The notes beneath the pieces are model-generated. The model was not told the origin of the DNA, did not search any database, and saw only the letters and a list, made by a program, of their open reading frames with translations. A program made the position numbers and the translations under genes. Below are positions 28,288 to 50,148 of a DNA stretch of 64,000 bases, piece after piece; the stretch's first letter is position 1, and the number at the start of each line of letters is the position of its first letter. The DNA is from Patescibacteria group bacterium (GTDB lineage Bacteria > Patescibacteriota > Patescibacteriia > UBA9934). Location of the stretch: positions 160,992 through 224,991 of the forward strand of contig JBAQTB010000001.1 in the NCBI GenBank assembly GCA_049296775.1. The letters are read 5' to 3'.

Positions 28288-30873
28288 ATGAATGAGATTT
28301 TAGCTGGCTTCAGAAAGCATCAGTTTAAAAAAATAGAGGCTCATCCCGAGACCAAGCCTGCTACCAAAACTGAGAATCGCGAAACTGCCACTCAGCAAAT
28401 CGCTGAGCAAATGATAGACATAGCTAATGAATTTGGCGTTGAAGCCTTACAGATCATACTGGCTAAAATGCAGACTGCCTTAACTGAGGGTCGCGGACTA
28501 GAGGCTGGCGAACTGGCAGAAGTGATCAAAGAGAAAGCTACTCGATCAGAATTCCAAGAAACGGCACTGAAGGCCTTTGAAGGCCTTGGCTTTGTAGAGC
28601 AACTCGATAACGGCACCGTGATTGTGGATGATCAAAAGCTCTTATCTGAATTTAGCCTCAGTCAACTACGCGATGTCGCCGGTGAAGAACTGGCCAAGTT
28701 TGGTGATTTTAAAACAGATCGCATCACTTTTTTAGGCAATGCCTTTGCAGATAAACAGGTTATTTTAAAAAACGACTGGAAACAAAACCCAGAAACACAG
28801 CCAAAGCCGCTTTTCTATCTACCTAATACACGTCAAGAATCCTTGGACATAGATCGCATTCGCGCCGCTGACTTTCATTATGGTCTCTGGGAGATCCCCC
28901 AGGCCAGTAAAGGTGCCAAAGAGCGAATAGAAGAATTATCTCAACCTGCCAGCGCTACAGAGCAGAATTATTTCGAAACCTCACTCGCGGCTGTAATTTA
29001 TCATCCAAAATTTGGCGATGCTCAGCGTGACGAACAGGGCAAACTTCACACCTATCAATCTGGCGAAAAAAAGGCTATCTCGGGTCAGTGGCTTTGGGAT
29101 CAGGGCCTTAAAATGAAGTTTACAGATGGCAAGCGTGAATTGCGTAGTAACGCCAAGGAGGTCATTCAAGAGTTTGCACCAAATATTATCGAAAATAGCT
29201 TACTTCAAGCGCAAGATTTTGGTCTTGAAAGGTCAGTAAATCGATCTCAAGAAACAGCCCGAGTCAGCAACAACGGCGTGGTGAGTATCGGAGGTGTAAA
29301 GCATTACCTCGGACGAGCGTACGCTGGGCGTGCAATTCGTATCGATGAAATTGGTGATGGCACAGCCGCATTAGTAGAACTAGCTGACAACGGTCAGGGT
29401 ACTCCGGTGGGCCTGATCGATATCTACAAAAAAGGTGATCCACGCCTAAGTGAACGAAAAACTAACACAGGCTCATTCTTTGAGGCTGGGGGTAAAATTA
29501 CCCATCCTAGAGCTTTTTCAGAAGCTGAATATCAATCACCCAAACCAAACGAAGATCCAGACGTTTTCTTTGCTCGCAAACAAAAATTCGAAGCCTTTAA
29601 TGCTGTTTTAGATTTTGATAATGTATTAAAAAGCCAGGGTTATCCGGCCATGTTCAGTCTCTCGCCAGAACTTCAGGGCAACATCAGAAATCATGGCAAT
29701 CAAATTAACAAAAATAAACAACTATATCTTAATTTTATAGATAGCTATGGCAAACCCGGCTTAGAGATAATGGCCGCGGTGATAGATAATAGCTCAATTG
29801 CAGAAAAAACCCTTGAAACCGCCCTTGCGTTGCCGGAGACAGAGCGAAATACACTCATTCCTAGACTCCATGAAGCCCTTCTAGCTCGCCATGTGGCCTT
29901 AAACGAATTAAAGGCTCTGCAGCTGGCAAACAAAGTGACGGATTTAGAAGTTAGAAAATTTACCTTTGAAATTAATCGCCGTGTCACCTCCCTACTTACA
30001 GCCGCCGAGGATAGCGCCGGGATTAGAGAAGGTTTAAATACAACTAACAAGTCAGAGGTCCTTAAACTCTTAGTAAAACAAGGGCAAGAGCTGGCTTTAT
30101 TTGCTAATATTTTTAAGGATGCCTTCAAGGGTAGTCCGGAAAACGTAATGGAAGGACTAAAGGGGGTGGAATTAAAAGTCGAGACTTGCGCAGAACTTTC
30201 AGACCTGGATAAAACTGCGATTTTAGATATTCACGCACAAAACTGGAAACAAAAACCGGATGTTTATCCAAAACTCCGCAAAGCGCTTGAAATAGCGCTA
30301 GAGTCAAACACTTCAAAAGCCTACGTGATGAAAAATGGTCATAACGTCACCGCCTTTATGCGGTTTGATCAAGTGGGCAATGACCCTAATCAACTGTACG
30401 CGGCCTCATTATTAGTTAAACCTGGGCTAAGAGGTTCGGCCATAGGAGAATCCTTCATGCGTGCCGCAATGGATGAATGTGCCGAAGATCATATTTTAAA
30501 GGCTGACTTCTTCCCTGAATTTATAGTAGGCACAACCTATGTAGAACAAATGGGATGGGTAATCACCGGTGTGGAGGAAGTGGATATTGGCAATGGTAAA
30601 ACGGCTAAACAGTTCATGATGGAACGTAATGATCGTAAAAACTTAGATTATGTAGGCAAGTCAAATAAGGATCTATCTAAGTCTAAGGGTCTAAACATAC
30701 AAACCATTGATGTACGCAACGGCACAGCCGAACTAATTCAAGCCGTAGAACAGGCCCAAGTCAAAGGCCAAGTAGTTACTCGTTATTTTGCTGATCGTAA
30801 AAACCCTAATCTGCGGACAATGGTGTTTGAGAATCGTCAGGATGAACAGATGGTACCTCAATCAAAGACATAG
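28288..30873 (+). CDS. large orphan protein (861 aa) with a C-terminal GNAT-like acetyltransferase motif
   Basis: Long ORF, no TM; C-terminal VKPGLRGSAIGESFMRAAMDE resembles GNAT motif A. Confidence 0.5.
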   Translation: MNEILAGFRKHQFKKIEAHPETKPATKTENRETATQQIAEQMIDIANEFGVEALQIILAKMQTALTEGRGLEAGELAEVIKEKATRSEFQETALKAFEGLGFVEQLDNGTVIVDDQKLLSEFSLSQLRDVAGEELAKFGDFKTDRITFLGNAFADKQVILKNDWKQNPETQPKPLFYLPNTRQESLDIDRIRAADFHYGLWEIPQASKGAKERIEELSQPASATEQNYFETSLAAVIYHPKFGDAQRDEQGKLHTYQSGEKKAISGQWLWDQGLKMKFTDGKRELRSNAKEVIQEFAPNIIENSLLQAQDFGLERSVNRSQETARVSNNGVVSIGGVKHYLGRAYAGRAIRIDEIGDGTAALVELADNGQGTPVGLIDIYKKGDPRLSERKTNTGSFFEAGGKITHPRAFSEAEYQSPKPNEDPDVFFARKQKFEAFNAVLDFDNVLKSQGYPAMFSLSPELQGNIRNHGNQINKNKQLYLNFIDSYGKPGLEIMAAVIDNSSIAEKTLETALALPETERNTLIPRLHEALLARHVALNELKALQLANKVTDLEVRKFTFEINRRVTSLLTAAEDSAGIREGLNTTNKSEVLKLLVKQGQELALFANIFKDAFKGSPENVMEGLKGVELKVETCAELSDLDKTAILDIHAQNWKQKPDVYPKLRKALEIALESNTSKAYVMKNGHNVTAFMRFDQVGNDPNQLYAASLLVKPGLRGSAIGESFMRAAMDECAEDHILKADFFPEFIVGTTYVEQMGWVITGVEEVDIGNGKTAKQFMMERNDRKNLDYVGKSNKDLSKSKGLNIQTIDVRNGTAELIQAVEQAQVKGQVVTRYFADRKNPNLRTMVFENRQDEQMVPQSKT

Positions 30874-31624
30874 GCTTGCCGCCGCCTAATTGCCAAAAAT
30901 ACTCAAACTGTGCTCGGTGTAAAGCTGCAATATTTTCGTCCTCTATCAAAACAGAGATTAATTTATTTGGTCTCAAGGTCAGATAGCTCACTTTATTATT
31001 ATAAACCTCGGTAGCCGTTTTAAAGCCAGCCGGGAAATCCTTTAAATAAACTACTTCTGTATACGGGGTAGATTGAGCCGCAATAAAATCTCGACTAGCC
31101 TGGCTATCTGGCAGAATTAACCGTTTTATAATCTTCTTTGCGACTCGTTGCTTTAAATACCCCCGGTTAATCTCGGCGATTACACCGATAACTGCCGCTG
31201 TGTCCAAAAAAGTCATAATTCCGTTAGTTGCCGCTAAAGAATCCTCCAAGACCTCTTTAAAACCCTCAGGGCCCTCAAACACCTGAATAGCTGGGCGGCC
31301 GGTGGTTAAATTGAAGGTTGAGGTGAGTTTTGGGAGTTCAGCCTTGAATTCAGCCTCTAAACGGTCTGTTTCAAGGCGTTTGGCCTCTACTAAGGAGGCT
31401 AATTTGGTTGGTTCGGCGGCCCGGTAGATCTGCAGTTTACCGGCCGTAACCGTGGCCAATCCCCTTGAAACTAGCGCGGTAAGCAAATTATAGACATTTC
31501 CACGCCCTAATCCTGAGTCTGGAACCAAATCACTGGCCTTAGACTCCCCTTTTAACAGGAGAAGTTCATAGAGTTTGGCCTCATTAGCAGATAAACCAAG
31601 TTTTTGCAGGATATGGGTATACAT
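30806..31624 (-). CDS. TrmB-family transcriptional regulator (paralog 1)
   Basis: N-terminal wHTH LGLSANEAKLYELLLLKGESKASDL...GRGNVYNLLTALVSRGL; similar to the CDS at 44673-45437. Confidence 0.65.
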   Translation of the reverse strand: MYTHILQKLGLSANEAKLYELLLLKGESKASDLVPDSGLGRGNVYNLLTALVSRGLATVTAGKLQIYRAAEPTKLASLVEAKRLETDRLEAEFKAELPKLTSTFNLTTGRPAIQVFEGPEGFKEVLEDSLAATNGIMTFLDTAAVIGVIAEINRGYLKQRVAKKIIKRLILPDSQASRDFIAAQSTPYTEVVYLKDFPAGFKTATEVYNNKVSYLTLRPNKLISVLIEDENIAALHRAQFEYFWQLGGGKPMSLIEVPSVHPDDSQTPLSAD

Positions 31625-31793
31625 ATATATAGGGTAAAGGTATCAGATTTTAGAAGTTAGAGATTAGAGTTTGAGGGTTAAATATCCTCCGCATGGCCCT
31701 AGTATACTCTTTACTGTCATATTGGGAATGGCAGGGTGTGGATAGATTCATGGCTTATCTTAGCCAAAATCTAGCATACGTGCCAGGGCGTGA

Positions 31794-31822
31794 TTGACAA
31801 AAGCTGGAAAAAATGCTACAAT
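31794..31822 (+). promoter_or_regulatory. consensus sigma70 promoter (TTGACA - 17 nt - TGcTACAAT, extended -10)
   Basis: TTGACA at 31794-31799 and TACAAT at 31817-31822 preceded by TG; no ORF follows on the + strand. Confidence 0.5.
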
Positions 31823-31829
31823 GGTTTTA

Positions 31830-32844
31830 CGAAGATGAGAACAGGAAGACTTCTAGCCTCTTCGCCCAACAGACTACATTAACTGAAACGGCGACAGACT
31901 GAACCTTCCAACAATTAGAGAGAGCCCTAGTCCACGGGTAAATGTGGATCGATGAAAGTCCCGTCTATATGTAAGTATAGATAGCGGAAGTTTCATAAGG
32001 CAGGTTTGCGTATCTCTCAAAAAGAAGACACGTAAACCTGCCTTTGTTTGTTTGTCCGAGAGAGGACGAACAAGTGAGGCGCTCGTACTGATGGGTCTTT
32101 GAGAAACGGTTCCCGGCCTCGTCTGGGAGTATCCACTAAGTGGAGAGAGACCATTTCTCGAACAACTATCAGCTCTATGGATTCCTACTTCGCTCTCCCC
32201 TCTGGGATTGAGCCTAGACAGGACCACGTCGGATTGATCAGGACCTACGTTAGCTCGATTTCGATCGAGTAGATACACGGTCAATCCCCCATTGCATCCC
32301 ATAAGAATGCAATGTGGTAATGAGTGCGAGACGGCCCAAGCCGTCTCCCCTCCAAAGCTCCGCAAGGAGCGAAGGGGGGAAGATACTTGGACTGTTCTCA
32401 CTCCTTATCACTAAAGGAGAGAGAAGCCCCTTAACAATTGAATAACAAGAGTTTGATCATCGATATCTCGATGTGTCGACTATGGAATCTCCTAGCCGCT
32501 TCCGACGCTCTGCGCCGATGAAGCACCCGCTAGACCCATGGCATCGCACGTTCTGATCCTTTGATCCTAGCCTCATAAGCCGCTTGTTTTAAACATCCGG
32601 CCCGTCCTGAAGTGACGCGCAAGCGTCTACTTCAGGGAGGAACTCTCAGTGGCTGTGACCTTGCTCTCCCCCTTAATAAGGGGGAGTTAAGAGGGGGTCG
32701 TAGCTAGTGAGAGCAGCAGAATCCCCAACGAAGTTCGAGCGCAAGCGAGAACGAAGTGGGATTGTGCTGCGCTAGTTTGTCAGGTACATCGCCGTTCAAA
32801 ACGGGCTAAGAGATTAACTTCTCATGCCCAAGAACAGCACTCGA
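31830..32844 (+). ncRNA. candidate large structured non-coding RNA (unclassified)
   Basis: ~1 kb with no credible ORF on either strand; several perfect hairpins with stable tetraloops (CTCGAT-TTCG-ATCGAG; GCTCC-GCAA-GGAGC; CCTGAAGT..GACGC-GCAA-GCGTC..ACTTCAGG; GAGACGGC-CCAA-GCCGTCTC; GGGATTGA...TCAATCCC). Confidence 0.35.
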
Positions 32845-32981
32845 GAGAGTGCACGGCAATGAATCTGACAGCAGTTTCCAGCCCAGGGATGTCGGCAATG
32901 TTGTCGATTTCCCAAACGCTGGAACACATTCCCTTTGGGGAGGTCGATTGCAAGACCTAAAATTGCAAAATGGAGTCTTAA
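32845..32981 (+). promoter_or_regulatory. conserved ~135-bp 5' leader, copy A (operator-like dyad + hairpin)
   Basis: ~90% identical to 36320-36454; contains TCGGCAATGTTGTCGA (32892-32907) and CCC-UUUG-GGG hairpin; ends at ATGACC start codon. Confidence 0.6.
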
Positions 32982-33539
32982 ATGACCCTCAATAACAGCA
33001 GCAGCGTCACCTTCCTCTCGGCAGCGGAGCTCAGGCTCCGCTGCGAAAACGAACTCCAGAAGGCCGAGGAGAACCTCAGTCGTCTGGAGTTCGAGCAGAT
33101 GGAAGCGGATGAAAAACTGTATGTCGCGACACAAGATCTGTCCGATCATCGGGCGGACGAGCTCGCACTGATGAATGAGATCAAGAACTTGAAGGAAGCA
33201 ATCAGCGCCAACCGTTGCCGCTCGGCGCAACAGATCGAAACGATGCTGAGTGACAAAGAGGAGCTGAAAATGGCGGAGGCGCGCCTCGTCTCCGCCACCG
33301 CCACCCGTCGCACCGCGGCGGAGGAGAAGATCAAGGCCTACAACCTGCTCCTGGCCGCCTCGGCGGCCACCCGCGCCGCGGAGCGGCGCGTCAAAGCTGC
33401 CATGTTCAATTCACGCCGTGCTGGGATGGAATTTGGCACGGACACCCGTGCCGGGGCCCCCACCGCCCGTCGGGCGGCGAAGGCCGCCAAGGCGGAGAAG
33501 GACCGCGCGATGCGGTCCCAAATGAAGGGCAAGAAGTAG
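32982..33539 (+). CDS. coiled-coil protein with basic C-terminal tail (island gene, unknown function)
   Basis: 185 aa; GC3-rich codons; heptad-like E/K/A-rich sequence; N-terminus MTLNNSS.. paralogous to MTHSFIN.. of the 36455 gene. Confidence 0.5.
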   Translation: MTLNNSSSVTFLSAAELRLRCENELQKAEENLSRLEFEQMEADEKLYVATQDLSDHRADELALMNEIKNLKEAISANRCRSAQQIETMLSDKEELKMAEARLVSATATRRTAAEEKIKAYNLLLAASAATRAAERRVKAAMFNSRRAGMEFGTDTRAGAPTARRAAKAAKAEKDRAMRSQMKGKK

Positions 33540-34419
33540 CCCTACCATAGTCAGACATTGCAGCTGACTTAAAGGTCTGCAAAAGGTTTCTGACTTTTAG
33601 ATAAAGTCAGCGATTGGTCCCCGCACCTGGACTACGCGTCGAGCGTTATCTCAACCAAGCCCGGAGCATAAAATGCCGGACAGCAAGAGGCGCGAGTAAC
33701 ACGCGCCAGTAACAGAAAAATTTGTTACGCCTCCCGCTTGAGGCCCAACCACCACTCTACCTCTTTGAAGCGGCAAAGATGTAGACGCTAATCACGCCAG
33801 ATTCTGCATCGAGCAGTTTCTCGATACATACATCAGGAGTTGGTCATCATGACCAAATTGAGTAAGTAGTCGCGTTGATGGGCGACGATAAAAGCGCCAT
33901 CAACCCTGCGTTGCTCTGGGGCCGAGCAACAGGATTGTGACTCCTTGATCACATGTCGGTAGTACATAACTATCATGCACACATGCACAGGTTGAGAGCT
34001 CGCGCTATGCACATCGCGTAGAGCTCTCCTTGATTGAATCACTGATTGAAAAATCGGAGGTTCTGAAAGGAAAAAACAAACACCCCCAATCAGTCTACGA
34101 ATAGTTTTTAAATTTTGTCTCAGCGCTGCGGAAACTATTAGCTTAGCTAGTTGTTTTAACAGCTCTCGGGAGAGAGCCAAGTTCAACCGGTGACTCTAGC
34201 ATAGTGCTAGGGAAAGCCGGACACAGAACGCCTAAATTGAAACCTTCAGATAAATGTTCAGACGTTAGTCGGTCTTGTTCGGGCAACCGAGCCAATCCGC
34301 CGTCAATGTGCAGAGATGCACAGCATTCAGCTGAATAAGTTTCTCTCTAGGAAAAACCTAAAATCCTGGGCGATTATCGTTCAGGTCGGCAGGCATGCCG
34401 GCAACCATATGGAGGCAAT

Positions 34420-35319
34420 ATGCGTATCAACTTCGTGTTCGGTCAGGTCGTGTCGTTCGAATCCCTCGCCGAGAACACCGTCGCGCTCGACGGTGCGGTC
34501 CAGGGGCCGAAGCTCGACCCCAAGACCCGTCGTTACAGCTTCGATCACCACGCGGATTGCATTCGTTTGATCACCCTGGCCACGTGCCAGCAGGTGTTCG
34601 CCGCGATCTTCCTCGGTGGGTTGATCGTCGACAACGAGACCACGGTGGTCATCAACGAGTTGGACGCGGACACGATCTTGTCCGTCTGGCTGTTGAAGAA
34701 CCCGGGTAGGGTCAACGAGCCGGCCGTGAAGGAGCTCGTGGACCGCGTGGGCTACACCGACTCCCACGGCCCGGCGTTCGCGCCGCACTGGCTCCACTTC
34801 CAACTCTCCAGCTGGAAGAAAGAGGATCAGACCATGGCCTTCCTCGAGAAGTGCCTCGGCCTGATCGACCAGTTTTTCGCCGGCGAGCTGAAGGAGCCGG
34901 CCGCGCGCCCGACGCGTGAGTCGATCGGATTCGGCTGGCACCCGCTGAAGGGTTGGGCGGAGGTCCAGACCCAGAATGGGTTCGGAGACCTGTACAAGTC
35001 TGGGTTCCTGGCGGGGTTCCTCGCGGAGCCCCAGGCGGACGGGACGGTGACCTACACGGTCGCCAAGAAGTCCGATCTGGTCGACTTGCCGGTCGGCCCG
35101 AGCCACGTTGACCGGAACGCCGACCCGGCGAGCTACCGGTCGGACACGGTCCTCGGCAGCCTCGCACTCCTCGAGCTCGAGGCTAACCCCTCCCAGGCGC
35201 ACAAGGCGAACTGGGGCGGAGGATCCTCAGTCGGCGGCAGCTGCCGCAACGAGGACAAGTCGGCCTCCCGGTTGACCCCCGAGCAGGTGCTCGAGGTGTT
35301 TAAGCGGTTCACCAAGTAG
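34420..35319 (+). CDS. hypothetical protein (island gene, GC3-rich)
   Basis: 299 aa; very strong third-position GC bias supports this frame over the Arg-rich antisense ORFs 34381..35202 and 34712..35167. Confidence 0.55.
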   Translation: MRINFVFGQVVSFESLAENTVALDGAVQGPKLDPKTRRYSFDHHADCIRLITLATCQQVFAAIFLGGLIVDNETTVVINELDADTILSVWLLKNPGRVNEPAVKELVDRVGYTDSHGPAFAPHWLHFQLSSWKKEDQTMAFLEKCLGLIDQFFAGELKEPAARPTRESIGFGWHPLKGWAEVQTQNGFGDLYKSGFLAGFLAEPQADGTVTYTVAKKSDLVDLPVGPSHVDRNADPASYRSDTVLGSLALLELEANPSQAHKANWGGGSSVGGSCRNEDKSASRLTPEQVLEVFKRFTK

Positions 35320-35671
35320 CGCGGGAGTCCTGGCTTGTATACCTAGGACGATCCCCCCTTTGTTCCTAACGGAACTCCGGAGGGATATAAAAACGTATAC
35401 AAAAAATCGCCGGGTGGAGTTGCTGCACAGCACTCCCCCGGCTCGCGAATCCCGATTCGACTGCACGTCAATCGGGATTCCCTTAACTGAGTTCAGAAGT
35501 TTAACTTGTGAATTGAGTTGAGGATGTACAACAAATCATCCTGCTTCTGAAACCATCTGCACGATGTGTTTCAGGGATCCTTAACTAACTTCTTGATGCC
35601 AAGCTCGAGGAGTTAGTTGAGGATCCGCTCAACATGCCCAAATCTAGCTGTGGAATGTCTCCGCAGCGCGT

Positions 35672-35932
35672 TTGTGTATATGGCGACCTCTGGGAGACAT
35701 CATGCGATGCTTTGTTGTTGAAACCTCCGGCGAATTGCCGGAAAAAAATGAGTTGAAAGACCCAGATGAATTCTGGGAATTGGAGGACGGCCTGGCCGTC
35801 CTCCTCCTCGTGCCCCGGGACCAATGTCCCGGGGAGTTCACCGCCTTTCCGGCGGTGATCGAGATTGAAGTCGTCGGGCAATGGCCCGACGGAAGTTCGA
35901 AAAAGAAAATTTGGGCTGTCGTCAAAACCTGA
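35672..35932 (+). CDS. small acidic hypothetical protein (uncertain)
   Basis: 86-aa ORF in the island; moderate coding look. Confidence 0.3.
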   Translation: MCIWRPLGDIMRCFVVETSGELPEKNELKDPDEFWELEDGLAVLLLVPRDQCPGEFTAFPAVIEIEVVGQWPDGSSKKKIWAVVKT

Positions 35933-36319
35933 CATTAGCCCAGCGCCCGCTCGCTGCCGGGCGATAAATATAGCAGTGCTTCAGAGGCTGTACGCACATA
36001 CGGCCTCTGACTACCACGTCTTTAAACTGACGTGGTCTCATCTGAGATTTTGAGTTAATGACTCGAAGTATCAGATGAGGACTCACAAACTGACATGCGC
36101 CAGCGAGACATATTTGTCCGCACACATGAAAGTAGTTTTCTCTCCCTACACCAACCCACTAGCAGGATTTTTCTATGTTTTCGAGAGTGGAATTACTTCT
36201 CTCTCGTAATCTATCTCTTGTTTACATAAAGAGATGTCGCTGTTGGGTTGCTGTGGGGACCATAAATCACCGGATCCCCCGGTGCTTTGGCGTTTCCACG
36301 GAAATGGACATGGACTCGA

Positions 36320-36454
36320 TAGAGTGCGTGTCCATACATCTGAGCAGTTTCCAGCCCAGGGATTTCGACAATGTTGTCGATTTCCTGAAAGCTGGAACAC
36401 ATTCCCTTCGGGGAGGTCGATTGCAAGACCTAAAATTGCAAGTTGGAGTCTCAA
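36320..36454 (+). promoter_or_regulatory. conserved ~135-bp 5' leader, copy B
   Basis: Perfect 16-bp dyad TCGACAATGTTGTCGA (36365-36380); CCC-UUCG-GGG hairpin (36404-36413); ends at ATGACC start. Confidence 0.6.
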
Positions 36455-36805
36455 ATGACCCATAGCTTCATTAATTTGAGTGAAGTTCGGAACGAGATCT
36501 GGTCGGTCTCGGTCAAAATGGAGAGGATTGCGAAAGTTCTGTGTCAGAAGAACCTTCGCGCCGAGCTGGAGGCCGCCCTCGAGGGGAAGGCCGCCGCCCC
36601 CCACGACCTAGAGGCGATTTTACGCCTCAACGCCGCCAGGAGAAATTTGGCGGCGGCGTTGGAGAGGGCGGGATCTTGCGATCCCGAGGCACTCCGCGAG
36701 GAAGAAAAAGTCCTCGCAGCGGCCCTCGCGGGGCTGCTGGAACGCGAGGCCCGCTGGGCCTCCGTGGTCGAGAATGAGGAGGCCGAAGCGCGTCTCCTGA
36801 GCTAA
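36455..36805 (+). CDS. coiled-coil protein (island gene, paralog of the 32982 gene at its N-terminus)
   Basis: Conserved ATGACC start after the leader repeat; the track's 36443 start is a TTG in the leader; A/E/R-rich helical sequence. Confidence 0.5.
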   Translation: MTHSFINLSEVRNEIWSVSVKMERIAKVLCQKNLRAELEAALEGKAAAPHDLEAILRLNAARRNLAAALERAGSCDPEALREEEKVLAAALAGLLEREARWASVVENEEAEARLLS

Positions 36806-36995
36806 AGCGTCGTTGGGATGCTGTGAACACCTCAGTTCACAGCATCCCAAATCTACAAAACATTAAAAATATTTTCATCGATAGAAATTTGCTTACCGTC
36901 ATAAGCAGGTTTCTCTCGAGGAAAAGTTCCTGAGAGACAATAACCGGCCCTACCCTGGGCCACGGCAGCCATGCCGATCAGCACGGAGGTGCACA

Positions 36996-38966
36996 ATGGC
37001 GAATAATTCTCACGTGTCTGTCTGCTGGGGATCCCCGGATGACCGGGGACTCGTCGGTCAGCTCGAGGGGGGCGGGCGCAAGCTCGTCCGCCTGGATAAC
37101 AAGGCTAAAATTCCGGCCGATATGCGGCCGGAACCCAACACGGTTCAGCCGTGTCGGGTGTCGCACGACACGGCTCCGGACGCCCCAGGGCGCGGCGTCA
37201 TGTTCGTGGTACCGATCGGCCCGGCGGTCGATCAAAAAACTGCCCGTGAACGGCGGATGGCTCAGAACCTGTCAGAGGTTCGGGCCGAGTGGAAGGCCGC
37301 CTGGCGACGGGCAGTGGTCTCCGACCTGACCAACTTGGTCAGCGGGTACAAGGCGAACATCGGGTACGACACCCGGTGGAACGTCGGAAGAGAGAATCTT
37401 GAGCCGCAAAACCCGCTGTTGCGGGTTGTTGATGACCAGGCGGGAGTCTGGACTAAGCCCTGTCAAAACGGGGTGTATATCTGGGAAGAGTGCGTTCTCG
37501 TCTTGCCCGAATTGGGCCAAGGCGAGGAGCTCTCCAAGCGGCTACTGGCCGCCTGGCGACAGAGCTCCTCCCTAAACGTGGGGCTCGAGAGGCTGACCGA
37601 TCTCGGTCTCAGCCTCACCGGACCCATCGACCGCACGGTCACGGTTAACGTACAGAATTACGTTATCGTGAACTGGAGCGGAGTGGTCAACGGTGAGCGC
37701 ATCACCATCGCCGAGAGGTGGTTCAAACCGGGAGACGGCGAAACTGGGGATGAAGACATCCCCGAGGTTGCCACCGCTTTGGCAGTATGGTGCAAGAAAG
37801 TCGTGGACGATTGTAGTCGTGATGAGTCCTGGGACACACTGGTCTCAGGGGTCGTGACACTGAGCTCGCACGTCACACCGACGTTCGAGTATCTGTCGCC
37901 AGACGAGCGCGGCACGCGCACGGGCGGTGGAAACTCAATCAACGTGGTGCATGTCGACGGCCAAAAAGTGGGCAATGTATCAGCCCTTTTCTGGCCCGAG
38001 GCGCAGGCCTTCTTTGGCCTGGTAGAGGGCGGCCATCACCCCGGGCTGTCGGCCCGTCAGCTCCGGGCGTTCAACCTCGCCCTATCTGACTGGACCACCA
38101 GCGGGCGACTGGGCCCTCGTGGTCGCGCAGCCATGCTGGCTGAAGCTGGGGTCAATTACGACCCAGCAGCAGTCATGGCCGCCGGAAAAACTGACAAAGC
38201 GCGGCGTGACTTTGAGGCTGAGGCCCAAAAAGTCGCCACACAGGCTGCGGAGGCGGCGGCCTTGAAAATCGCCGCCGCAGAAATCAGTAACGCGGCCAAA
38301 ACAGTTATGGCAGCGAAGCACTTCAGGTGTTTTGCGCCAACGCTGCAGGCTTTGCTGACCAGTCTGGTCAGCGAGGCCAATCGGCCATTCGTTGAAGATT
38401 ACTGGCTCTCCTGGGCGCAACGCGTGATGCTGCAAATCCAGGAAGCCACACCGGCCGCAATTGCGGCAGCTGGCCAGGAAGAGCAAGGCGAAATCCTTGC
38501 TAACTTTCAGGCATGGAAAAAGCGCAGCGGCGGGCCCACTAACAATGGACAGGGCTGGGTAATCCAACCGGACGGCTCGTGTCGAGAGCCGGACCGCATG
38601 GACAAACCCCGGCCTCGCCATGATGAGGGCACCCAACATTGGGACCTCGTCAGTGGTCCGGAACTGGCAATCTCGTGGAGCAGAGCGCACTCTGGCGCTC
38701 CCCACGAGTTCGCGGTGGCCAAGATGCCCACCCGCGACCGGATCACAAAGGCGCAACGGGCAACCGTTGTGCGTCTCCAAACGGAGATCGCAGAAGCCGG
38801 AGGCGACTGTGGTAACTGCTGGGGGCTTACCCCAGTCATCGCGGCTCCCGCACTCGCTCCGCGAGTAACGGCGCCAGCCTCACCGTCACCTGAGGTGGCG
38901 AAAGCGAAAGTATCAGCGGCTGATGTCGAAAAGCTTAGAGAAGCTCTCGGCATCAAGCGCCGCTAA
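36996..38966 (+). CDS. large orphan protein (up to 656 aa; true start may be an internal Met)
   Basis: GC3-rich frame; Ala-rich helical central region; C-terminal CGNC and Pro/Ala-rich tail; antisense ORFs 38082..38780 and 38507..38956 judged spurious. Confidence 0.5.
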   Translation: MANNSHVSVCWGSPDDRGLVGQLEGGGRKLVRLDNKAKIPADMRPEPNTVQPCRVSHDTAPDAPGRGVMFVVPIGPAVDQKTARERRMAQNLSEVRAEWKAAWRRAVVSDLTNLVSGYKANIGYDTRWNVGRENLEPQNPLLRVVDDQAGVWTKPCQNGVYIWEECVLVLPELGQGEELSKRLLAAWRQSSSLNVGLERLTDLGLSLTGPIDRTVTVNVQNYVIVNWSGVVNGERITIAERWFKPGDGETGDEDIPEVATALAVWCKKVVDDCSRDESWDTLVSGVVTLSSHVTPTFEYLSPDERGTRTGGGNSINVVHVDGQKVGNVSALFWPEAQAFFGLVEGGHHPGLSARQLRAFNLALSDWTTSGRLGPRGRAAMLAEAGVNYDPAAVMAAGKTDKARRDFEAEAQKVATQAAEAAALKIAAAEISNAAKTVMAAKHFRCFAPTLQALLTSLVSEANRPFVEDYWLSWAQRVMLQIQEATPAAIAAAGQEEQGEILANFQAWKKRSGGPTNNGQGWVIQPDGSCREPDRMDKPRPRHDEGTQHWDLVSGPELAISWSRAHSGAPHEFAVAKMPTRDRITKAQRATVVRLQTEIAEAGGDCGNCWGLTPVIAAPALAPRVTAPASPSPEVAKAKVSAADVEKLREALGIKRR

Positions 38967-39165
38967 AATCTCGGACGTCGCTCGTCGCACAACGACGACG
39001 TCCCCTTATCTGATAGCTTCAGGCTTCTCTCTCCCTGGAGTTATCAGATGAGGACCAGTGAATTCCGTTCAGTTTTAAATCATGGTGATTTGGAGCTTGC
39101 GGAAAACTGGAAATCACGGTCTTCAAATGACCGATCAACCGCGCCAATAGGCGCAAGGAGGCCTC

Positions 39166-39876
39166 ATGGTCATCGAAAAGTTTTGGACCGTTGTCGCGGG
39201 GAAGATTGGAACCGCCCATACTGGGCGGGACGGCGTCGTGCGGGACTTTCGTCCCGCCGAGATCGAGTTCTGCTCGATGAACGGAACGGTCTTATTGAAA
39301 CCGCGAGACGGCGTCACGCCAAGGGAGACATTGAAACTCTCCCGGCGTGAGTTGTCCCGTGAGCCGCTGGAAGGCGGTGAGCGGGATCGCATCACCTTCG
39401 AGGTCTTCGCGACCTTCATGGAGGTGGAGATCTCAGAGGTCAGGACCGAAGAAGTCCTGACGGCTCTCGGCAAGGAGCGTGCCGAGCAGCGGTCCGCTCT
39501 TGAAAAGCAGAGCTGGGCTGATGCCCAGCTGTTGAGAAAGGCTCAAGAGCCCGAGGACCGCCAAGCCCTCGAAAACTGGATCACGGCCCGACTGGCCGAC
39601 CCACTCATGGGCGGCCAGATGCAGGTTAATCACCTGCTCCGCAAGCCCAGTCGGGCGCGGTGGGCCGTCGGTGCCCTCGTGAGCCGATGGCTGCGGTGGG
39701 CCCCGCTAGAGGGACAGTTCAACCATCGCAACGATGTGTTGAAAGCTCTCCAGGTCCGCTCCGGATCTACGGAGTACTACGCCGGAGGGCAGCTGGTGGC
39801 AAGCCGGGTGGCGGAGGTGCTCGAAGAGCGCCGCGCCGTTCGCAAGGCCGAATGGCTCGCGCGTAACAACAAGTAA
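39166..39876 (+). CDS. hypothetical protein (island gene)
   Basis: 236 aa; RBS AAGGAGG 6 nt before ATG; GC3-rich. Confidence 0.55.
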   Translation: MVIEKFWTVVAGKIGTAHTGRDGVVRDFRPAEIEFCSMNGTVLLKPRDGVTPRETLKLSRRELSREPLEGGERDRITFEVFATFMEVEISEVRTEEVLTALGKERAEQRSALEKQSWADAQLLRKAQEPEDRQALENWITARLADPLMGGQMQVNHLLRKPSRARWAVGALVSRWLRWAPLEGQFNHRNDVLKALQVRSGSTEYYAGGQLVASRVAEVLEERRAVRKAEWLARNNK

Positions 39877-40047
39877 ACCTCCGGCTTCTTTCTTGCTTTC
39901 TGAGCCTGATCAGTAAAGTAATTCGAATGTCGCTTGCACCTGCGGCATTCGCTCGTCACGTCGTTTACATCCGACGTGACCTCATCCGATACCTTGAGAT
40001 TCTCTCTCGCTCGAGGTATCAGATCAGCTCATGTGTCAGCATGAAAA

Positions 40048-40086: not shown

Positions 40087-40977
40087 TTATTGCATGATCA
40101 CGGTAGCGCCGGGAGGGGGCAGATATTTCATCTCAGAATGATTCTCGCATACCAGAGTATCTCTCAAGAGATTGCCGGTACGACGATCGATAACTTGTTG
40201 AAAAAGTTTATTTTCTCTGTAAAACTTACCGGTTTTTTGGTCGTGAATAAACTGGTGATCTCGTTCAATGATCGAATAAGCAACCTTAGGCTCATGACTG
40301 GCCCGGAGTTCGCCACGCAGAAATTTATCATCAACCCAAACTACAAGCTCAAAATCCGTTTCCGTGTCATTCCGGAATTGGAGATCGACGTAATTATAGA
40401 AAATCGTGGCACCACTCGCAAAAGGCAAAACCCTTCCCGAATCCGGGAAAGCATCAAAGCTATGACGGTACCGTTCTGTCACTGTAAGCGGAGAATGCAA
40501 CGCCATCCAGTAAAGTAAGTTAGCCATCTGACACAGCCCTCCCCCCACACCTTCAATCACTTCTCCATTGGAAAGCAGGATCCCTGGCAGAAAACCACGC
40601 TGAGCTGTAGGGCGACCCACTAACTTCCAGAGTGAAAAAGTTTCACCGGGCTTAATAATTATCTTGGTGATCTCTTTGGCAGCCAATTGCAGATTCGTGA
40701 TCTTATTGTGTTGTAAACGCATGTCAGTGTTACCCAGCTTGCGCAATAACAATGACTTATGCGAGTAAACTTTAAACGGTAAAGGTGCCTGACTACGCTC
40801 ACTAGCGTAGCAGGTAGCGCCAGTACGCCAAACAAACTGACGCTGCAAGCGATGATGCTCAATAGCCAGCTGACGAATGACTGGATTTTTCTTTAATGTC
40901 GATAACATAAAACGGCTAAGTATACTCAAAAAAGCAACTTTTGTCAATCGCTTACCTTGTATAACGCTACCGTACAA
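40087..40977 (-). CDS. VanW-family protein
   Basis: VanW core GVGGGLCQMANLLYWMALHS; N-terminal hydrophobic segment. Confidence 0.75.
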   Translation of the reverse strand: MYGSVIQGKRLTKVAFLSILSRFMLSTLKKNPVIRQLAIEHHRLQRQFVWRTGATCYASERSQAPLPFKVYSHKSLLLRKLGNTDMRLQHNKITNLQLAAKEITKIIIKPGETFSLWKLVGRPTAQRGFLPGILLSNGEVIEGVGGGLCQMANLLYWMALHSPLTVTERYRHSFDAFPDSGRVLPFASGATIFYNYVDLQFRNDTETDFELVVWVDDKFLRGELRASHEPKVAYSIIERDHQFIHDQKTGKFYRENKLFQQVIDRRTGNLLRDTLVCENHSEMKYLPPPGATVIMQ

Positions 40978-41036
40978 AAGGTGTTACAATGGCGCTATTC
41001 CTACGCCATTATTGCCGTGGTCTATACTTACCGTAT

Positions 41037-42410
41037 ATGAAATCCCTAGTCTTTCTCACTGTCGCCCTAAGTTTCCTAGTCATGCAGCAGGCACAAGCCG
41101 CAAGCAACTATGAACTTAAGGTGTTTACGCAGTCTGGCGAGTTAGTTAGGTCATTTGTACCGTTCACGGAAGGGACACCCGGTAGCGTCACAGCTGCTGA
41201 TCTTGGCGCTGATGGCGTAGCTGAGATTATCGTGGGGGCGGGTTACGGCAGTCAGCCGCTCGTACGCGTTTTTCGTCAGGATGGGTCGATAATTGGAGAG
41301 TTCATGGCGTACGGTGAAACCTTTAGGGGCGGGGTCAACGTGGCTACTTGCGACTTAGACGGCGATGGCAATAGCGAAATTGTCACTGGAGCTGGCTATA
41401 CCGGTGGGCCCCACGTCAGAATCTTCAAGAATGATGGAACGCCAACTGGAGTCTCGTTCTTTGCCTACGGTGAAGCCTTCCGTGGTGGCGTGAATGTGAC
41501 CTGCGGAGACGTTACGGGTGACGGGATCGCAGAAATCATCACGGGTGCAGGCGTAACCGGCGGACCGCATGTCAAAGTCTTTAACGCAGCTGGCGCTTTA
41601 CTTGATGAAGCTTTTAGCGGCTCGGCTAGTGAGTCCACTGGTGTGTTTGTCACGCTTGGTGATACAGACGGCGATGATCAGCTCGAAGTCTTGGCCTCGC
41701 CCATGGCATATGCACATCCGAGCGTAACAATTTTCGCGTGGACCAACGGCGCTCTCAAATATCGTCAATCACTGGCTACCGGTACCGTACCAACTCACGG
41801 CTCCCCCCTTGCCGCTTTCGATATCGACAATGACGGAGCGGACGAAATTGCGGTGAGTGATGGCGCTTTCGGCAGTAGCGTAATCGATGTCTTAGAAACT
41901 GTGGGCAATACTACGGCGAGTATCGAAACAAGTTCACTCACCGCCGGCTTTTCTTTGGTGCCAGCAACTCTTAAAGACGATGCATCCAATCATTTGCTCG
42001 TACTCGCAGCCACCACCCAGCTAGTGGATGCCACGAGTGAAAAATATATCGTGGTCGATATTTCCGAACAGCGTCTTACGGCCTTTAGTAACGGTGTCCC
42101 GGTGAATACTTTTCTAGTGTCAACTGGAGTGAACGGCTGGAATACTCCGCAAGGCACGACCACAATCACAGCCAAAATTCCGATCATGGATTACACCTGG
42201 TTTTACGGCGCTGGTAATCCTAACAATTACAGTTTGCCAGACGTACAGTGGAACATGCGCTTCCGTAACCACTACTATTTGCACTCGGCATACTGGCACA
42301 ACAACTTTGGTCATCAAATGAGTCACGGCTGCGTCAACATCAGTGTTCCAAATGCTGAATGGCTATTCAACTGGTCAACAGTTGGTACAACGGTGACGGT
42401 ACAAAATTAA
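41037..42410 (+). CDS. FG-GAP repeat protein with C-terminal L,D-transpeptidase (YkuD) domain
   Basis: Signal peptide MKSLVFLTVALSFLVMQQAQA; repeated DGDG..E..TGAG FG-GAP units; catalytic SHGCVN in C-terminal YkuD; track ORF starts at 40989, but an extended -10 TGtTACAAT at 40982-40990 favours 41037. Confidence 0.75.
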   Translation: MKSLVFLTVALSFLVMQQAQAASNYELKVFTQSGELVRSFVPFTEGTPGSVTAADLGADGVAEIIVGAGYGSQPLVRVFRQDGSIIGEFMAYGETFRGGVNVATCDLDGDGNSEIVTGAGYTGGPHVRIFKNDGTPTGVSFFAYGEAFRGGVNVTCGDVTGDGIAEIITGAGVTGGPHVKVFNAAGALLDEAFSGSASESTGVFVTLGDTDGDDQLEVLASPMAYAHPSVTIFAWTNGALKYRQSLATGTVPTHGSPLAAFDIDNDGADEIAVSDGAFGSSVIDVLETVGNTTASIETSSLTAGFSLVPATLKDDASNHLLVLAATTQLVDATSEKYIVVDISEQRLTAFSNGVPVNTFLVSTGVNGWNTPQGTTTITAKIPIMDYTWFYGAGNPNNYSLPDVQWNMRFRNHYYLHSAYWHNNFGHQMSHGCVNISVPNAEWLFNWSTVGTTVTVQN

Positions 42411-44672: not shown

Positions 44673-45437
44673 TTAGTCAACTAAACGCTCCCATAAGGCT
44701 AAAAACAAGCCCCTCTGGGTCACGTAAATGCCGGGGTTTTCTATAATCAAACCCACCAACTCACCATCTTTATCTAAAAAGATATTCGCCACCTTGCCAT
44801 GATAGATCAAAATGTAGGTCGGGGTGCCCTCTAAACCAGAAATATATTTACGTTCATCCAAACCGGCCGTTTTGCCACCCTTACCAATGGAAATATTCTT
44901 AACGTGAATACCAGCCGCCAAACGCTTCTCCGTATAATCATGAAAAGAGTTGTACAAACCGGCCTCACGGACTGAACTTGAAGAATACACAAAATATTCC
45001 GGCTTGTCCGCCTTCACTACCGTCTCTAAAACATCTTCTAAAATTGCTCTAACGCCTTCCGGACCCTCATACATCCGCGCCGCCGGCTGCCGGGTACCCG
45101 CCGAGTAACTAGCCTCTAACTCAGCCACTACGTGGGTTAAATCACGGGTAGCCTTATCGATCTCAGCTGCGCGTGCCCGGGCCAATTCCTGCAATCTAGC
45201 GGGCGGTGCAGCCACAAAGAACTGCTTAGTTTCACGATTATAAAAATGGACTAACTCCAAAACTTGTAAATGTTTCAACGTGTCGTAAACCGTGCCGCGA
45301 TTAATCCCAGTCAAACTCGCCAATTGTCGCACCGAACCCGGACCCTCCCGCAACAAGGTCAGATACAACGTCACGTCCTTGGGAGACAAACCTAGCTCCC
45401 CCAATACCTCTTCCAAAGGACGTGTTAAAACGCTCAT
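44673..45437 (-). CDS. TrmB-family transcriptional regulator (paralog 2)
   Basis: wHTH LGLSPKDVTLYLTLLREGPGSVRQLASLTGINRGTVYDTLKHL; same architecture as the 30806 gene. Confidence 0.65.
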   Translation of the reverse strand: MSVLTRPLEEVLGELGLSPKDVTLYLTLLREGPGSVRQLASLTGINRGTVYDTLKHLQVLELVHFYNRETKQFFVAAPPARLQELARARAAEIDKATRDLTHVVAELEASYSAGTRQPAARMYEGPEGVRAILEDVLETVVKADKPEYFVYSSSSVREAGLYNSFHDYTEKRLAAGIHVKNISIGKGGKTAGLDERKYISGLEGTPTYILIYHGKVANIFLDKDGELVGLIIENPGIYVTQRGLFLALWERLVD

Positions 45438-46775: not shown

Positions 46776-46896
46776 AGTCTCATTGTCCTGGCGACAACCT
46801 ACTCTCGCCACTCTTGACTACCATCGGCTCATGCAGGCTTAACGACCGTGTTCGAGATGGGAACGGGTGTGGCCCTGCAGAAAGTGTCACCAAGAC
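46776..46896 (-). rRNA. rrf: 5S ribosomal RNA
   Basis: Reverse complement contains CCGATGGTAGT and GCGAGAGTAGG 5S motifs; ends approximate. Confidence 0.8.
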
Positions 46897-47094
46897 AATA
46901 CTACCTTTTATCGGAAACAATCCAAGTTTTTCATCTACGTTGTCAGAAACCTCCGTCGGACTCACCATAGGATTTACCTACACCTCGTCCTTACTCGGTT
47001 TCTTCCTAGTAGCTGATAAAACTTAATTATTTCCGTCGTAATGACTCGTTATAGAGGAAAGTAACCATCATTGCTGCGCTCAACTTTTGAGCCG

Positions 47095-50148
<3,054 letters not shown>

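Follow-up and report, generated by a model that had tools for sequence, protein, structure and literature searches.

The locus described here raises the question of what a bacterium encodes in about 1 kb of hairpin-rich sequence that follows a strong promoter and contains no credible open reading frame (ORF). It lies in a stretch of 64,000 nucleotides (nt) from a metagenome-assembled genome of a Patescibacteria group bacterium (GenBank assembly GCA_049296775.1, contig JBAQTB010000001.1 of 455,697 nt, positions 160,992 to 224,991 of the forward strand), which will be referred to as the window and whose first letter is position 1. A first-pass annotation, made from the sequence alone, had proposed that positions 31794-32844 hold a candidate large structured non-coding RNA (ncRNA). 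According to the comparative data presented below, this region almost certainly represents a real and new family of structured RNAs in Uhrbacteria-like Patescibacteria. The core of this RNA, delimited by covariation and nhmmer searches, spans ~950 nt (31829..32776, plus strand).

Coding capacity, homologues, and fold of the RNA

No credible ORF can be found from the likely transcription start (~31829) to the ATG at 32982. Between 31830 and 32980, TAA, TAG, and TGA are present in each of the six frames, so that a recoded stop codon cannot rescue an ORF, and an alternative genetic code has been ruled out on the same grounds for this and other ORF-poor stretches. An overlooked or decayed protein gene, or a structure that arose by chance, could be argued from an ORF of 175 amino acids (aa) on the minus strand (31874-32401), whose composition the first-pass annotation had already judged implausible. 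This ORF is retained only in the closest relative (a similar ORF is found in L014), is missing from the remaining relatives, and has no match in Pfam. In a comparison with five relatives, the substitutions with respect to the closest one are distributed over codon positions 1, 2, and 3 as 39, 42, and 41, with no codon periodicity, and the indels are not multiples of three. Together with a covariation far above that of the controls (see below), these results refute a coding or chance origin as far as sequence data permit, and the probability that we assign to it is negligible.

Homologues of the RNA have been identified in three steps. Relatives of a 656-aa protein encoded downstream led to the contigs L005 and L006, in which a gap of 1.3-1.5 kb devoid of genes comes after a gene for a TrmB-like protein, and the gap of L005 aligns in nhmmer searches to positions 31698-32871 of the window (E = 3e-80). 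Two blocks invariant in the first three sequences were then combined into the DNA pattern AGAGAGCCC N{52,82} CAGGTTTNNNTATCTCTC, which matched five metagenome contigs and one GTDB genome (Candidatus Uhrbacteria UBA10169). Finally, orthologues of the TrmB-like protein gave four further distinct loci. The window sequence and its 11 homologues add up to 12 distinct RNAs (window, L014, L012, L005, L018, L016, L021, L024, L010, L011, which equals L015, L013, and L006), one of them from the Candidatus Uhrbacteria genome; both this number and the taxonomic range are lower bounds (at least 12 distinct sequences). Searches of IMG/VR with two RNA patterns and of the GTDB species representatives with the TrmB protein gave no matches.

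For the RNA core, nhmmer E-values are 4.5e-152 for L014, 3.3e-100 for L012, and 1.1e-73 for L005. A covariance model of the most conserved part (R1, 134 nt) finds one copy per locus, with E-values of 1e-19 to 3e-30, and has no other match in the 64-kb window. The RNA measures ~950-1,050 nt in the window and roughly 1,300-1,500 nt in more distant relatives. The identity of aligned columns is 77-84% for the RNA versus 71-77% for the DNA of the neighbouring TrmB gene and, by this measure, the RNA is at least as constrained as the adjacent protein gene. An independent Logan assembly of the same sample contains the identical sequence, indicating that the region is not an assembly artefact.

The many conserved G-U pairs, along with the promoter, assign the RNA to the plus strand. 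The minimum free energy (MFE) calculated for 1162 nt is -478.8 kcal/mol on this strand versus -466.3 on the minus strand, and the MFE z-scores of 300-nt windows over 31750-33100 (plus strand) range from -3.6 to -8.4, in contrast to values of ~0 in the coding DNA just upstream. Values of -2 to -6 are also observed on both strands at 33100-34750, inside the gene array that follows the RNA and with its ORFs included, so unusual foldability is not confined to the RNA gene.

A covariation analysis with the corresponding regions of related genomes has given values far above those of slid and shuffled controls. The full-length alignment (A7) comprises the six closer sequences, and its RNAalifold consensus contains 190 pairs in 21 helices, 77 of these pairs showing compensatory double changes. 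In this fold, 93.7% of the cells are paired, versus 39-43% when the partners are slid by 1-3 columns; these slid controls retain merely 9-16 pairs with double changes, and the observed values were reached in none of 500 column shuffles. When RNAalifold was applied to MAFFT alignments of the 12 sequences together, it recovered the most conserved helices only, and the full structure rests on six to eight closer sequences because the MAFFT alignments are poor outside the conserved blocks.

Several domains can be distinguished in the consensus, all of them on the plus strand. Domain 1 (31901..32184) is a multi-branch structure with hairpins at 31930-31950, 31952-31996, 31998-32043, and 32044-32077 and an arm at 32088-32172; in eight sequences it contains 61 pairs, 26 with double changes, and 91.8% of its cells are paired, compared with 38-48% in the slid controls. 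The hairpin at 31998..32043, with 17 bp and an invariant apical AUCUCUC loop, is the most conserved of the whole RNA and constitutes the core of model R1. It is present in the 12 homologues, with covarying pairs in L021 and L024. Domain 2 (32231..32314) consists of a helix formed by GGAUUGAUC and GGUCAAUCC around a UUCG hairpin (32253-32270), followed by a second hairpin (32290-32314). The corresponding helices 9-11 of A7 show double changes in 4/6, 3/7, and 6/7 pairs, with 94-100% of the cells paired.

Domain 3 (32315..32446) contains a near-invariant core (GUGGUAAUGAGUGCG ... CACUCCUUAUCAC) into which a variable arm is inserted, and then a conserved strand, GGAGAGAGAAGCCCCUUAACAAUUGAAUAA (also rendered UUCACAAUUGAAU). 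The core could be aligned in the 12 homologues, where 9 of its 17 pairs are compensatory, and GAGUGCG and CACAAyU are invariant, as are several strands of this domain. Domains 4-7 (32455..32769), which correspond to helices 15-21 of A7, comprise a long arm (32455-32566), a nested GCAA hairpin (32600-32641), a long hairpin (32643-32713), and a terminal hairpin (32714-32769), and double changes affect 4/4 pairs in helix 17, 7/10 in helix 18, 10/15 in helix 19, and 7/18 in helix 20. The terminal hairpin and parts of helix 20 are also recognisable by eye in L011, L013, and L006. Beyond the core, a lineage-specific 3' domain (32777..32876) with a UGUCAG...CUGACA closing stem and a GAGA-capped hairpin (32837-32852) is kept only in the window, L014, and L005, being absent or different in L012, L016, and L018. 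The gene had previously been drawn to 32844; its conserved core ends earlier, at ~32776, and the lineage-specific domain extends slightly further, to ~32876.

Several of the helices that had been proposed from the single sequence have turned out to be real. The UUCG hairpin, the AUUGCAU/AUGCAAU hairpin (32290-32314), and the nested GCAA hairpin covary, and the CUCCCCCUU hairpin caps the covarying helix at 32643-32713. The stems GAGACGGC-CCAA-GCCGUCUC and GCUCC-GCAA-GGAGC belong to an expansion common to the window and L018 only; the consensus fold contains a long-range pairing of GAGAC with UUCUC (32395-32399). The long-range pairing suggested between UCAAUCCC and GGGAUUGA has to be replaced, as covariation favours the pairing of UCAAUCCC with GGAUUGAUC (32231-32239).

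Comparison with known RNA classes

No known family has been detected in the window RNA or its homologues by the Rfam comparison that had been suggested to check the proposal. With Rfam 15 at gathering thresholds, the window yields only 23S, 5S, and four tRNAs. With permissive filters, the region 31600-33100 gives chance-level matches to microRNAs and small RNAs only (E >= 0.12), and the 12 related loci yield only two tRNAs, located outside the RNA. The models without a match include those of OLE, GOLLD, ROOL, HEARO, raiA, RNase P, transfer-messenger RNA (tmRNA), signal recognition particle (SRP) RNA, and 6S RNA, as well as those of group I and group II introns and self-cleaving ribozymes. ARAGORN finds neither a tmRNA nor a tRNA at 31500-33200, and literature searches revealed no report of a large RNA from Patescibacteria or Uhrbacteria.

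It could be thought that the RNA is a highly divergent and expanded version of a universal RNA (RNase P RNA, tmRNA, or SRP RNA), or else a group I or group II intron lacking an ORF, that escapes the covariance models. It shares with RNase P RNA a large size, a multi-domain organisation, and a strong promoter, and two strings of the window, GAUGAAAGUCCCG (~31952) and ACGGGCUAAG (~32801), resemble the two strands of the P4 helix. Moreover, the 23S gene of the window also carries insertions, and bacteria of the candidate phyla radiation (CPR) are known for insertions in their rRNAs. However, no Rfam model of these RNAs reaches E <= 10 on the region, even with permissive filters, none matches in the 11 homologous loci, ARAGORN detects no tmRNA, the window RNA is ~2.5 times longer than RNase P RNA, and the P4-like strings take part in other helices. 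In fact, GAAAGUCCCG is the 5' arm of a local hairpin (helix 3 of A7) that covaries from AUGAAA/UUUCAU to CAGAAG/CUUCUG, and the site reads GAAGUUCCC (also rendered GAAGUUCCCUU) in five relatives, while the ACGGGCU string, which is similar to CR-V, lies within the lineage-specific 3' domain, which is missing in half of the group-A relatives (L012, L016, and L018 lack it). The invariant blocks of the family correspond to none of the known conserved regions of RNase P. Taken together, these data make a universal RNA or an intron very improbable, and they agree with the first-pass annotation, which had considered and rejected both RNase P RNA and tmRNA.

Two specific RNase P-like pairings have also been evaluated and ruled out. 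A P4 pseudoknot between GAAAGUCCCG and ACGGGCU is discarded because its first strand is inside the covarying local hairpin. Similarly, a P1/P2-like closing helix between AUGAGAA and UUCUCAU is discarded, as its second strand forms part of a local GAGA...UCUC hairpin, longer in L014, and the 5' partner of this helix is missing from L005.

The RNA is closer in its general features to the large ornate ncRNAs OLE, GOLLD, and ROOL, the size class in which the first-pass annotation had placed it, and this placement is supported by the 12 homologues, the compensatory changes in 77 of 190 pairs, and the non-coding nature of the region. It shares with those RNAs a size class of ~0.6-1 kb or more, dozens of covarying helices with GNRA or UNCG caps, conserved single-stranded blocks, a narrow taxonomic range, and the lack of coding capacity. 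The features used to describe large ornate ncRNAs (more than 500 nt, many covarying helices, unpaired conserved blocks, no coding capacity) are all found in the window RNA. It is not their homologue, given that the covariance models of OLE, GOLLD, and ROOL do not match it. The genetic contexts also differ: GOLLD and ROOL sit in prophages or tRNA-rich regions and OLE in an operon with oapA, whereas the window RNA is Patescibacterial (Uhrbacteria-like) and is located beside a divergent gene for a TrmB-like regulator and a GC-rich array. A passage of PMC12286853 reports that GOLLD, ROOL, and OLE form RNA homo-oligomers, as revealed by cryo-electron microscopy (cryo-EM).

With respect to the ribosomal RNAs, the window encodes 23S and 5S rRNA genes (46786-50129, minus strand) with no adjoining 16S gene within the window, and the 23S gene, when aligned to the bacterial model, contains several insertions of 50-60 nt.

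Regulatory region, neighbouring genes, and downstream array

The RNA is preceded by a sigma-70 promoter with an extended -10 element (TTGACA-17-TG-n-TACAAT; 31794..31822, plus strand), in which the -35 hexamer occupies 31794-31799 and the -10 hexamer 31817-31822, separated by a 17-nt spacer and with the TG just before the latter. The promoter scan counted 11 of 12 consensus matches plus the TG, confirming the promoter that the first-pass annotation had recognised. The architecture TTGACA-17-TGnTAnnAT is kept in 10 of the 11 loci with upstream sequence; the exception is L014, whose promoter (TTGACA-17-TGGTATAGT) has a G instead of a T at the final -10 position. Transcription likely starts at the A at ~31829.

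Upstream of this promoter, and divergent from the RNA gene, there is a gene for a winged-helix regulator of 272 aa (30806..31624, minus strand; Pfam PF01978, E = 2e-15), referred to above as TrmB-like. An orthologue in this divergent orientation is found in 11 of the 11 loci with upstream sequence, and the protein database contains 37 orthologues, whose named sources are all Patescibacteria or Uhrbacteria. The gap of 170 nt between this gene and the promoter includes a set of conserved blocks (31727..31786) revealed by the comparison of 11 loci: AATGGCAG (31727-31734), TGTGGATAG (31737-31745), the palindrome GGCTTATCTTAGCC (31752-31765), and AGCATACGTGCCAG (31773-31786), all read on the plus strand. 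In most of the 11 loci the same order is observed (AATGGCAG, TGTGGATA(A/G), the 14-bp palindrome GGCTAA-NN-TTAGCC, and GCAT.C.TGCCA), the blocks being degenerate in a few, such as L006. This set looks like an operator region for the divergent TrmB-like regulator, and the RNA promoter is probably regulated, putatively by that protein. On the opposite strand, TGTGGATA(A/G) reads as the DnaA-box-like TTATCCACA; GC skew does not change sign across the window, which offers no evidence of a replication origin there.

The gene next to that of the TrmB-like regulator encodes a protein of 861 aa (28288-30873). Structure prediction and fold search recognise in this protein only a generic C-terminal GNAT acetyltransferase domain and match nothing to its N-terminal part of 650 residues; a sequence search of the PDB with this protein and with the 299-aa protein of the array gave no match. 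A protein of 740-916 aa is encoded at the same position in 10 of 11 loci, is truncated at 563 aa in L014, and has a recorded GNAT domain in six. The fixed synteny on the left side (TrmB-like and usually GNAT genes), together with the variable array on the right, indicates that the RNA is a chromosomal gene that heads the array. As a separate observation, a second TrmB-family gene (254 aa, PF01978 with a weak HVO_A0114 match) is found ~5 kb past the array, adjoining a nucleotidyltransferase gene (~44673-45437, minus strand; L002:8262-9026).

The array that follows the RNA (32982..40040, plus strand) consists of co-directional orphan ORFs of 185, 299, 86, 116, 656, and 236 aa. Its GC content is 56-62% (33000-40000), versus 42-51% in the surrounding DNA. 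Of the 11 loci, the window included, for which sequence beyond the RNA is available, 10 are GC-rich there (0.55-0.63 in most); the 855 nt available in L013 have a value of 0.45, and L012 ends before the array. Five of the window ORFs were searched in Pfam and PHROGs and all six in PADLOC and NCBIfam, with no match. All array genes of the window, L005, L016, L014, and L010 point the same way, as do most of those in L018, L021, and L024. In L006 and L011 the RNA is followed by genes encoded on the other strand, and the first gene after the RNA differs between loci. Array families of the window are shared with L004, L005, L006, L016, L018, and L021: the 656-aa family is present in five arrays, the 236-aa family in two, a family of 133-162 aa in three, and the 299-aa family, according to BLASTP, in the window and L018; by eye, L016 also shows an N-terminal match to the latter. 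The arrays of relatives also hold PIN, HicAB, and HepT toxin-antitoxin genes.

The array of the window has no good plus-strand sigma-70 promoter inside it, the arrays in general are nearly devoid of promoters on the coding strand, and the terminator scan detects no intrinsic terminator after the RNA in most loci. Additionally, in L018 a ribosome-binding site (RBS) and an ATG come directly after the last RNA helix, and in L005 an ORF begins ~50 nt past the 3' domain. These features would be expected if the RNA were a giant cis-acting 5' leader that controls read-through, stability, or translation of the array and has no function apart from it. Nevertheless, leaders and riboswitches are recognised by a conserved downstream gene on the same strand, and here the first gene varies and the RNA is kept whatever gene follows, even in L006 and L011, where it cannot be only a leader given the opposite orientation of the next genes. 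In L012, a weak hairpin with a U-run, seen by eye and not called by the terminator scan, comes right after the core. Furthermore, ~190 consensus pairs plus invariant single strands far exceed the needs of any known leader, and the presence of one RNA copy per locus speaks for a gene of its own rather than a leader. We thus consider it unlikely that the RNA is simply a leader.

A repeated element of 150 nt links the end of the RNA with the array. Its two copies in the window (32839..32988 and 36314-36461, plus strand) are 88% identical and supply the 5' untranslated region (5'-UTR), RBS, and start codon of the 185-aa and 116-aa genes (ATG of the latter at 36455). The first copy overlaps the 3' domain of the RNA; the element is also found after the RNA in L014, and analogous repeats appear in L021, L024, and L005. 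A second, diverged copy of the RNA at 35320-36440 was considered and ruled out, as only the last 150 nt are repeated. Contigs of short-read assemblies made from the same sample end at these repeats (~32966, 32939, and 36412). The array also contains a further 0.9 kb without ORFs (33540-34420), with weak similarity to L005 and L018.

ORFs of the array are followed by long hairpins of very high stability. The one at 36034..36082 (plus strand), with a basal stem GGUCUCAUCUGA...UCAGAUGAGGAC, has copies at 39003-39055 and 39978-40030, with z-scores of -7 to -8, and the consensus of the basal stem is CCUCAUCYGA ... UCAGAUGAGGAC. The 11-mer CAGATGAGGAC of these hairpins occurs on the coding strand of arrays in the window (2 copies), L005 (4), L016 (3), and L004 (2), genomes whose proteins are 37-57% identical, and within the window the motif is found only inside the array. 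By eye, CUCUCUC is located in the apical loop of 9 of 12 array hairpins. Rfam gave no family match for these elements, and a hammerhead-like reading of CAGAUGAG was ruled out, since an A takes the place of the invariant U in CUGAUGA and none of the ribozyme models gives a match.

Cassette-like arrangements of this kind are seen in the window (32982-40040), L005 (3500-12825), L016 (1-4700), L004, L021, and L024. They resemble integrons in that orphan and toxin-antitoxin genes, co-directional and largely promoterless, are placed behind one strong promoter at the head, each gene followed by a repeated imperfect palindrome with conserved ends, and in that the content is variable. They differ from integrons in three respects: no IntI-type recombinase has been found at the array, the consensus of the hairpins (CCUCAUCYGA...UCAGAUGAGGAC stem, CUCUCUC loop) differs from attC, and the array is headed by a 1-kb structured RNA gene instead of intI/attI. 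More generally, no integrase, transposase, or recombinase was detected in or next to the arrays (Pfam, PHROGs, PADLOC, and NCBIfam in the window; Pfam lists in relatives). The first-pass annotation had also contemplated an RNA component of a mobile island; the position of the RNA at the head of the array gives this reading partial support, but there is no evidence of mobility, as no integrase and no IMG/VR match were found. Regarding cassette turnover, the loci from paired strains provide no information because they are identical or nearly so (L024/25/26, L018/19, and L021/23; L016/17 at 99.98%). In the window, genes for VanW and YkuD/FG-GAP proteins border the far end of the array (40087-42410), whereas in L016 and L018 they are found on the opposite side, beyond the TrmB and GNAT genes, indicating that the locus has been rearranged around the unit formed by the RNA and the array.

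This arrangement is also compatible with an independent, trans-acting large RNA that is unrelated to its neighbours (a self-assembling RNA or a lineage-specific housekeeping ribonucleoprotein, RNP), next to which the array is found because a highly transcribed gene for a structured RNA is a hotspot for recombination and insertion, like tRNA and tmRNA genes. As in the islands anchored at those genes, a fixed structured RNA gene is followed from its 3' end by a variable region of deviant composition, and the 3' domain differs by lineage exactly at the junction between RNA and array. The toxin-antitoxin genes are typical of hotspots, and the opposite-strand genes downstream in L006 and L011 point in the same direction. 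It also fits that GOLLD, ROOL, and OLE, according to a passage of PMC12286853, homo-oligomerise without a dedicated operon. However, no integrase or transposase is present in or beside any array and IMG/VR contains no match, no direct repeat of the RNA 3' end closes the island on its far side, the 150-nt repeat serves as the 5'-UTR of two array genes, and neither ARAGORN nor Rfam identifies a tmRNA or tRNA. Furthermore, arrays of different genomes share their own hairpins and gene families, with the hairpin motif of the window restricted to its array, and a marked strand asymmetry between GAGAGAG and CUCUCUC, described in the next section, would be left without explanation. An RNA acting independently of the array is therefore a serious minority possibility, of which we remain doubtful.

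Function of the RNA and its possible tie to the array

The explanation that we prefer, to which we give an even chance as a whole, is that of a previously undescribed gene for a structured ncRNA that is functionally tied to the array. That the RNA acts in its own right is, as a part of this explanation, probable: it would work in its folded form, as a scaffold, as an RNP, or possibly as a ribozyme, and would be neither an mRNA nor a mere leader. The RNA would be the 5' module of the array transcripts or would be made together with them, as suggested by the lack of a terminator after the RNA in most loci and by the essentially promoterless array.

The tie to the array is suggested by a short motif. 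Each RNA homologue contains two to eight copies of GAGAGAG, compared with ~0.1-0.6 expected from dinucleotide-preserving shuffles, and the count is matched by at most 1-4 of 500 shuffles. In the 64-kb window, five of the seven plus-strand copies are inside the RNA, and those at 31918, 32143, and 32417 are conserved and unpaired in the consensus fold. Conversely, CUCUCUC is nearly absent from the RNAs and enriched in the arrays. The loop of one array hairpin (39023-39035) is complementary to positions 32415-32427 of the RNA over 13 nt (12 in the k-mer scan). The complementarity of another RNA block, CACGUCGGAU, to array hairpins has been treated as due to chance, as it concerns only elements of the window and not those of L005, L016, or L004.

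This distribution suggests that the GAGAGAG strands may act as docking sites for loops of the UCUCUC type, of which one is internal and others perhaps belong to the array transcripts. Unpaired GAGAGAG strands would dock, one probably binding the invariant UCUCUC loop of the RNA itself in a tertiary contact, and the others would be free for the CUCUCUC loops of array hairpins, for an S1-domain protein, or for both. A candidate for the latter is the 656-aa protein of the array (36996..38966, plus strand), which is predicted by AlphaFold2 to have an S1 RNA-binding fold (an N-terminal S1-like OB fold) and may be a partner of the RNA; the mean pLDDT (predicted local distance difference test) of the model is 59.8, with blockwise values mostly of 62-87 over residues 1-390. 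As a result of this coupling, processing, stability, or translation of the array transcripts would be tied to the RNA. We infer co-transcription, docking, and any effect on the array from sequence features, and the coupling through GAGAGAG/CUCUCUC or the S1 protein is the more tentative part of the proposal, with the chances clearly against it.

Several considerations weigh against this explanation. GAGAGAG and CUCUCUC are short, and both are invariant, so that covariation cannot test their contacts; in the window RNA, two of five GAGAGAG copies simply correspond to GAGA-capped hairpins; and an exact CTCTCTC is missing from the arrays of L018 and L021. The S1 protein family is present in only five arrays, and S1 domains bind many RNAs. 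The content of the arrays is highly variable, including PIN, HicAB, and HepT genes, and would also fit a simple recombination hotspot unrelated to the function of the RNA. Regarding the structure, the family consists of 12 sequences and the full-length fold of six, all of them related, so the shuffle statistics overstate their independence.

A broader version of the coupling between RNA and array, which we consider quite improbable, is that the RNA is the organising or catalytic part of an integrase-less system of gene cassettes in Uhrbacteria-like Patescibacteria. By means of its GAGAGAG strands, the RNA would recognise the array hairpins (CUCUCUC loops and CCUCAUCYGA/UCAGAUGAGGAC stems) and would direct their processing or expression, or even the capture and shuffling of cassettes. 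If true, this system would parallel the integron platform, with an RNA at its centre.

Few bacterial RNAs are both large and intricately folded, and the classes identified earlier (ribosomal RNAs, RNase P, group I and group II introns, tmRNA, OLE, GOLLD, and ROOL) have each revealed new biochemistry or a new RNA architecture. The RNA described here occupies ~1 kb in genomes of ~1 Mb that are otherwise tightly packed, and its size, a conservation equal to that of the neighbouring gene, and a dedicated conserved regulatory region argue for an important function in these bacteria, which cannot yet be cultured on their own. It provides a defined target for cryo-EM and for searches for ribozymes and RNPs. 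The RNA also flags a previously unnoticed cassette-like array of orphan genes with its own conserved hairpins and, if RNA and array are indeed coupled, accessory genes would here be organised around an RNA in a novel manner.

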